Part shown: positions 35,040 through 35,431 of the stretch, piece by piece
Numbering within the stretch: the stretch's first letter is position 1
Layout of the letters: every line of letters begins with the position of its first letter
Origin: Escherichia coli
Lineage (GTDB): Bacteria; Pseudomonadota; Gammaproteobacteria; Enterobacterales; Enterobacteriaceae
Reading direction: 5' to 3' (one strand)
Assembly (NCBI RefSeq): GCF_024223415.1
Contig: NZ_CP100500.1
DNA length: 64,000 bases
Notes under the pieces: generated by a model
What the model saw: only the letters and a program-made list of their open reading frames with translations
Told to the model about the DNA's origin: nothing
The model's database searches: none
Made by a program: the position numbers and the translations under genes

Positions 35040-35166
35040 AGGGGCTTCATCCGAATTGCGCCATTGTTGCAATGGCGGTTTTTATTGTTTTTCACGACAG
35101 TAACCGCACCTACACTGTCATGACATTGCTCGCCCCTATGTGTAACAAATAACCACACTGTGAATG

Positions 35167-35180
35167 TTGTCTTTAATCAA
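35167..35180 (-). promoter_or_regulatory. Putative FNR half-consensus site in nrfA promoter region
   Basis: Minus strand reads TTGATTAAAGACAA (TTGAT-N4-nnCAA) about 130 bp upstream of nrfA start, within the divergent acs-nrfA control region. Confidence 0.4.
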
Positions 35181-35431
35181 TTGTAAGTGCATGTAAAATA
35201 CCACTTTAGAGTTAGTCAGTATCTTCCTCTTTTTCAACAGCATGCATAACTACATGTTCCTCAAAGAATTAATCAACTTTTGTTGCTGACCTTCAAAAAT
35301 TACCCTGCCGTTTATTTGCACAATTCTACTTTTGCGTGATCTGTCGCCCAAATACTAAACAAAACTGCCAATACCCCTACATTTAACGCTTATGCCACAT
35401 ATTATTAACATCCTACAAGGAGAACAAAAGC

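Follow-up and report, generated by a model that had tools for sequence, protein, structure and literature searches.

The closest described system for the region reported here, the spacer between the divergent genes acs and nrfA, is that of Escherichia coli K-12. In K-12 the nrf genes have a single promoter, pnrf, with an FNR site centred at -41.5 and a NarL/NarP site centred at -74.5 (Godfrey et al. 2017, PMC5434802). The acs gene has two promoters, acsP1 and acsP2, which start 224 nt and 20 nt before the acs ATG; the sequence strings of both have been printed, with acsP2 determined by rapid amplification of 5' cDNA ends (5'RACE) (Olvera et al. 2009, PMC2759082, Table 1). The first of these, acsP1, is weak and is repressed by FNR bound at the same -41.5 site (PMC5434802). 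For acsP2, RegulonDB v8 (PMC3531196) lists three sites each for Fis and IHF and two activator sites for CRP, of which the proximal one is at -69.5, and an A at -93 from the acs start codon is located in CRP I (Kinnersley et al. 2009, PMC2763269); the presence of two CRP sites for acsP2 is supported by both of these sources. The corresponding region was analysed here in a stretch of E. coli DNA of 64,000 nucleotides (contig NZ_CP100500.1 of RefSeq assembly GCF_024223415.1). This whole stretch is referred to as the window, and all positions are those of the window.

Identity of the acs/nrfA region

The acs/nrfA intergenic control region occupies positions 35040-35431 and is assigned to neither strand. 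Open reading frames and start codons define its limits, the 392 bp spacer being bounded by the ATG of nrfA (35039-35037, minus strand) and the ATG of acs (35432, plus strand). At 38.5%, the GC content of the spacer is below that of nrfA (52.3%), of acs (56.7%) and of the window as a whole (52.8%). In an alignment to strain MG1655, 391 of the 392 positions are identical (99.7% to K-12). Of 5426 complete E. coli genomes, 5413 contain a match to the spacer, with a single copy in almost all of them.

This stretch is, with a probability of roughly 95%, the divergent acs/nrfA control region of E. coli in what is essentially its K-12 form, serving nrfABCDEFG on one side and acs-yjcH-actP on the other. 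The region is already known and is ordinary here. An initial annotation, made from the sequence, had described it as the divergent acs/nrfA control region, not novel and AT-rich within these limits, and it was right in each of these respects. It gave no positions for CRP II, the NarL/NarP site, the pnrf start or the two acs promoters, and it passed over ytcB, the structured nrfA leader and the rare variant at 35252.

The spacer is 100% identical to that of strain S51. Since identity to S51 is 100% in both of the regions that were queried, the window is probably from an S51-like strain. Codon 2 of acs carries one synonymous change relative to MG1655 in the alignment.

Promoter elements on the nrf side

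There is only one TTGAT-N4-nnCAA motif on the nrf strand of the spacer. This is TTGATTAAAGACAA, which reads from 35180 to 35167 on the minus strand and has its centre at 35173.5. The centre of the FNR site is published as -41.5, and the pnrf start (+1) is therefore at 35132. This placement agrees with three statements in PMC5434802, namely that transcription initiates with C, that there is a G at +4, and that +102 is the final G of nrfA codon 3, AGG for arginine; in the window there is a C at +1, a G at +4 and AGG at +100 to +102. The FNR-like site of this form that the initial annotation had noted on the nrf side is thus the mapped FNR site (35167-35180, minus strand), placed at -41.5 by the text and supplementary Fig. 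S5 of PMC5434802. A TTGAT-N4-ATCAA-like site near -41.5 of a mapped start has the geometry of class II activation by FNR. Binding of FNR and FNR-dependent anaerobic transcription have been shown for the identical K-12 sequence (PMC5434802, Table 1).

Downstream of the FNR site is the pnrf extended -10 element, TGTTACACA, at 35139-35147 (minus strand), with the hexamer TACACA at 35139-35144 and an A at -7. Supplementary Fig. S5 of PMC5434802 gives an FNR site and an extended -10 (TGTTACACA) for MG1655 that are the same as those of the window; enterohaemorrhagic E. coli (EHEC) O157:H7 has TGTTACACT. The NarL/NarP site is TAACTCT-AA-AGTGGTA at 35199-35214 (minus strand), centred at -74.5, the position being taken from PMC5434802. 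It is a 7-2-7 operator, a pair of inverted heptamers, that differs from TACYYMT-N2-AKRRGTA by two mismatches, one in each heptamer.

Promoter elements on the acs side

Both of the promoter strings printed in PMC2759082 match the window exactly on the plus strand, ending at 35208 for acsP1 and at 35412 for acsP2. The acsP1 start (35208, plus strand; string and distance of 224 nt before the ATG from PMC2759082) lies within the NarL/NarP site of the nrf promoter. The acsP2 elements, at 35400-35412 (plus strand), are the -10 sequence TATTAT (35400-35405) and the start C (35412), which is 20 nt before the ATG (PMC2759082).

CRP I, the proximal acsP2 site, is at 35332-35353 (plus strand). Its centre at 35342.5 corresponds to -69.5, and its core, CGTGA-N6-GCCCA, is at 35335-35350 (PMC3531196, PMC2763269). 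The A at acs -93 is window position 35339, the A of the CGTGA in this site. A mapped start at 35412 with a proximal CRP site at -69.5 is as expected of a class III promoter. The initial annotation had offered 35333-35346 as an example of a TGTGA-containing CRP-like site. This example lies inside the mapped CRP I and the site itself stands, yet its sequence reads TGCGTGATCTGTCG and holds CGTGA instead.

The distal, low-affinity acsP2 site, CRP II, is reportedly centred at -122.5 (Beatty et al. 2003), which would place it at 35279-35300 (plus strand, centre 35289.5). At this assumed position there is no match to the CRP consensus at up to 3 mismatches. An FNR consensus match with 2 mismatches, TTGCTGACCTTCAA, is found at 35283-35296 and has the same centre, 35289.5, as CRP II; this is probably just the half-site geometry that CRP and FNR have in common. 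Between CRP II and CRP I there is a block, ATTTGCACAATTC, at 35313-35327 (acsP2 about -99 to -85) that is 87% conserved over 20 orthologous regions. This block may correspond to a Fis site known from K-12.

Expected regulation

The binding and regulatory effects are those established in the K-12 papers cited, and the near-identity of the two sequences suggests that the same effects would occur in the strain from which the window comes. On the nrf side, the weak extended -10 promoter starting at 35132 would fire only with FNR, active in the absence of oxygen, at -41.5. By the K-12 experiments, IHF and Fis would damp this activation, with Fis I, which overlaps the -10 sequence, shutting the promoter in rich medium. 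Upon the appearance of nitrite or nitrate, phosphorylated NarL or NarP at -74.5 would displace IHF. Translation of nrfA would in addition be limited by CsrA, acting through the GGA at codons 3-4 (+101 to +103).

On the acs side, the K-12 experiments indicate that the main promoter, acsP2, would be activated by cyclic AMP-CRP at -69.5 and presumably at about -122.5, the reported position of CRP II, in a 'class III' arrangement. Fis and IHF would act as anti-activators at this promoter. The weak acsP1, inside the nrf operator cluster, would be silenced by FNR.

Conservation of the region

A genome scan with a degenerate pattern for the DNA of the acs N-terminus identified 44 loci, and in 17 of these, from Escherichia and Citrobacter, nrfA is divergent from acs. 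The pattern missed Salmonella because of codon choice, and Salmonella and one metagenomic relative were added through their NrfA homologues. The identities given here are from 20 orthologous acs/nrfA regions, each compared with the window.

Identity over the whole spacer is 81%, and it is unevenly distributed. The FNR site (96%), the stretch between the FNR and NarL/NarP sites (95%) and the NarL/NarP site (98.8%) are conserved on the nrf side. On the acs side, CRP I has 93.6% identity with its left core CGTGA invariant, the acsP2 -10 sequence has 100% and the acs 5' untranslated region has 98%. Between the two operator clusters (35215-35278) identity is 61%. CRP II, at its presumed position, has 74% identity overall, with 98% in the right half (TCAAA) and 51% in the left half. 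In Citrobacter and Salmonella the NarL/NarP site is separated from the acs-side sites by approximately 35-40 bp more than in the window, giving spacers of 431-436 bp.

Among the loci examined, divergent acs/nrfA adjacency is found only in Escherichia, Citrobacter, Salmonella and the one metagenomic relative. No nrfA is present within 1.5 kb upstream of acs in Enterobacter, Leclercia, Kluyvera, Lelliottia, Cedecea and others, and the neighbours of nrfA differ in Trabulsiella, Buttiauxella, Atlantibacter, Serratia and Pectobacterium. Although nrfA does not neighbour acs in Trabulsiella, Atlantibacter, Pectobacterium and Serratia, these genera have kept a TTGA-N6-NCAA site upstream of nrfA. Buttiauxella, in which acs is likewise not the neighbour, has a one-base variant of the FNR site upstream of nrfA, TTGATTAAAGACAG. 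The NarL/NarP heptamer pair is also kept in Trabulsiella and Buttiauxella, the latter with the perfect consensus TACCCCT-AA-AGAGGTA.

Motif strength and the single difference from K-12

Two observations weigh against reading the stretch as a working control region of the K-12 form. The first is that the FNR, CRP and NarL consensus matches do not rise above chance, and the sigma-70 scan gave nothing. With up to 2 mismatches to TTGATN4ATCAA there are 56 matches in the window against 30 expected, the FNR site itself having 2 mismatches. With up to 3 mismatches to TGTGAN6TCACA there are 182 against 201 expected, and here CRP I ties with the sequence at 35159-35174 at 3 mismatches. The NarL 7-2-7 pattern, allowing as many as 2 mismatches, occurs 2 times where 2.4 are expected. 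A sigma-70 consensus scan found no promoter-like site, with 1.2 expected; this null result fits the presence of two activator-dependent promoters but is uninformative. As the motif matches are at chance level, sequence alone could not separate real sites from false ones. The status of the sites rests on the K-12 experiments and on strong conservation across species, not on the strength of the motifs.

The second observation is that position 35252, within the upstream zone that contains IHF and Fis sites in K-12, carries a rare A. This is the sole difference from MG1655 in the spacer alignment, A here and G in K-12 on the plus strand, at acsP2 -160 and pnrf -120. The exact 61-mer around this A occurs in 29 of 5407 E. 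coli records, O121 strains and S51 among them, and the column is also variable between species.

The ytcB open reading frame

An open reading frame for 18 amino acids, ytcB (MHLQLIKDNIHSVVICYT), is located at 35136-35192 on the minus strand, upstream of pnrf +1 and in overlap with both the FNR site and the -10 sequence. It is annotated as a coding sequence in the MG1655 RefSeq record (b4821, YP_010283918.1), and the frame is intact in the window and in two other Escherichia species. If ytcB were a real small protein with translation that matters, part of the conservation of the FNR/IHF zone would be due to coding constraint. This is unlikely. In 12 of 14 Citrobacter regions ATA stands in place of the ytcB ATG, and in several the stop codon is displaced, while the FNR site does not change at the DNA level. 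In addition, the frame begins 60 bp upstream of the pnrf +1, the only known nrf start, and because of this no known mRNA carries ytcB. As a conserved protein ytcB was rejected, the start codon being lost in Citrobacter. A literature search for ytcB returned only an unrelated Bacillus gene and nothing on the E. coli gene.

The nrfA leader

Within the acs/nrfA control region, the nrfA 5' untranslated leader occupies 35040-35132 (minus strand). It is 93 nt long, running from the +1 C at 35132 to the ATG at +94. Minimum free energy folding predicts two hairpins in the leader. Hairpin 1 is at 35092-35123 (minus strand, +10 to +41) and has an 11 bp stem; hairpin 2 is at 35059-35077 (minus strand, +56 to +74) and has an 8 bp stem, CGCCAUUG/CAAUGGCG. 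Between them is an A-rich linker, AAAAACAAUAAAAA, at 35078-35091 (minus strand), which has 92.5% identity over the 20 regions and reads as five AAN triplets. Binding of Hfq or S1 to this linker is speculation. The left arm of hairpin 1 contains a perfect 10 bp palindrome, TGTCATGACA, at 35116-35125 (pnrf +8 to +17), which differs in just four of the 20 regions. Its role may be that of an operator in the DNA, downstream of the start, or it may be no more than a portion of the RNA stem.

Two GGA motifs are also of interest, as their invariance fits CsrA. The GGA of the experimentally validated CsrA site is at 35030-35032 (minus strand, +101 to +103), in nrfA codons 3-4 just outside the spacer, and is invariant in 19 sequences. 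A p+102A substitution lifts repression by CsrA (PMC5434802). The upstream GGA, at 35050-35052 (minus strand, +81 to +83), is a candidate auxiliary CsrA contact and is invariant in 19 leaders from approximately 10 genera. Further GGA motifs in the leader were named as possible low-affinity CsrA targets by Godfrey et al., who termed the role of the long conserved nrfA leader unclear (PMC5434802).

Helix 1 is 100% paired in 15 Escherichia and Citrobacter sequences, where 7 pairs have changed on one side and 1 on both sides, and 96.9% paired when Salmonella, Trabulsiella and Buttiauxella are added. Helix 2 is 99.2% paired in the 15 sequences and 96.7% in the wider set, with wobble-compatible changes. 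Taken together, 99.6% of stem cells in both helices are paired in the 15 sequences, and 96.8% with Salmonella, Trabulsiella, Buttiauxella and the metagenomic relative. Changes on both sides affect 1-3 pairs of the leader stems, and there are many wobble-compatible single changes. Covariation scored 0.228-0.247, compared with 0.207-0.210 for shuffles, of which 3-5 of 500 reached the observed value, although a score of this kind can arise in 5-25% of alignments that are not under constraint. The place of helix 2 is taken by a hairpin with another sequence, preceded by an A-rich tract, in Atlantibacter, Pectobacterium and Serratia. A scan of 34500-36000 against Rfam at E<=1 gave two meaningless weak matches and no family for the leader.

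If the alignment is instead read in the plus-strand sense, the share of paired cells is 74% for helix 1 and 92% for helix 2. Pairing is kept on the minus strand and not on the plus strand, which favours an RNA on the nrfA strand over a terminator on the plus strand. Such a terminator was considered since the terminator scan finds, on the plus strand at 35059-35087, an 8 bp stem with 5 G-C pairs followed by GTTTTTATTG, and the T/A-rich tract is 92.5% conserved. In this case the hairpin and T-run would be a working intrinsic terminator for antisense transcripts leaving nrfA towards acs. However, 0.8 terminator matches are expected in shuffled sequence, and substitutions in the stem are wobble-compatible on the minus strand and give A-C mismatches on the plus strand (pairing 99.2% versus 91.7%). 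The stems of C. amalonaticus and C. sedlakii have energies of -5 to -8 kcal/mol in the sense direction versus -2 to -4 kcal/mol in antisense. We know of no antisense promoter inside nrfA. An antisense terminator at this position is accordingly improbable, more so than a functional ytcB.

It is suggested, although the statistical support is modest and suggestive only, that the leader hairpins have been selected as RNA on the nrfA strand. The leader as a whole, with its two hairpins, (AAN)5-like tract and two invariant GGA motifs 17 nt apart, may tentatively be seen as a conserved post-transcriptional control module, a possibility that falls short of even odds. If this is true, the leader could, over and above the one established CsrA site, set mRNA stability or the access of ribosomes, CsrA or Hfq, and enteric bacteria would have an extra post-transcriptional layer in the control of respiratory nitrite reduction.

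The TGTGA sequence at 35159-35163

The initial annotation had also given a TGTGA-containing CRP half-site at 35157-35162 on the acs side. These positions read ACTGTG; the TGTGA is at 35159-35163 (plus strand) and belongs to the nrf side, where it occupies pnrf -27 to -31 and is flanked by the FNR site and the -10 sequence. Alignment to the mapped K-12 operators places 35157-35162 off both CRP sites, the one centred at 35342.5 and the other, from its presumed position, at approximately 35289.5. The pentamer has 47% identity over the 20 regions and is present only in the window and K-12 type of sequence, being replaced by CCCAG or CTATG in other Escherichia, by CTGAA or CAAGA in Citrobacter and by CTTAA in Salmonella. 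As a CRP site 35159-35163 was rejected, because the match is at chance level (3 mismatches in the full 16-mer), identity is 47% and there is no mapped K-12 operator here. That the TGTGA forms the left half of a functional CRP site, TGTGAatgttgTCTTT, making acsP1 a class II CRP-dependent promoter, is scarcely credible: the centre of this 16-mer, 35166.5, precedes the published acsP1 start (35208) by exactly 41.5 bp and its 3 mismatches to the CRP consensus equal those of the genuine CRP I, but matches of this quality occur at chance frequency (182 found versus 201 expected), the pentamer is confined to K-12-type sequences, and PMC3531196 and PMC5434802 have only two CRP sites, both for acsP2, with acsP1 weak and controlled by FNR.

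Other features of the window

A perfect CRP consensus, TGTGATATAGTTCACA (0 mismatches), is present at 47615-47630, in the yjcB-pdeC region. The beginning of Acs, encoded at 35432-35520, reads ...RCLIKPQQ...SINAPDT... in the window; at two positions within these strings K-12 presumably has N and V.

Comparison with known systems

The window is identical to the K-12 pnrf/acsP1 region from the nrfA ATG through pnrf -119. This includes the FNR and NarL/NarP sites, the extended -10 TGTTACACA, the C start, the 93 nt leader and the CsrA GGA. The one difference from the K-12 pnrf is at pnrf -120, where 35252 is A here and G in K-12. Likewise, the window is identical to K-12 acsP2 from -159 to the ATG, including the start, the TATTAT sequence and CRP I with the A at acs -93, and only -160 differs.

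The pnrf variant of EHEC O157:H7 has the same architecture and FNR site as the window. It differs in having a T at -7 (TACACT), where the window has the A of K-12 at 35139, and the window is not the EHEC variant. The EHEC T at -7 confers FNR-independent activity and resistance to repression by Fis (PMC5434802). The acs/nrfA regions of Salmonella Typhimurium and Citrobacter have the same gene arrangement as the window, with conservation of the FNR, NarL/NarP and CRP I sites, the acsP2 core and the leader hairpins. The E. coli nir promoter is reportedly of a similar kind, with a class II FNR site at -41.5 and repression by IHF and Fis that is relieved by NarL/NarP. The logic of nir and pnrf is the same, but nir is at another locus, has other spacing and is not divergent with a CRP-controlled promoter.

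Signal integration at divergent promoters has a textbook example in the acs/nrfA region, where the nrf side reads oxygen, nitrite and nitrate, growth phase and nutrient quality, and the acs side reads carbon status. As the K-12 form of this region the window adds nothing new to that picture. The comparison with K-12 and EHEC does settle its annotation: the -10 sequence is not the EHEC variant, the elements have exact coordinates, and one false CRP site has been removed.

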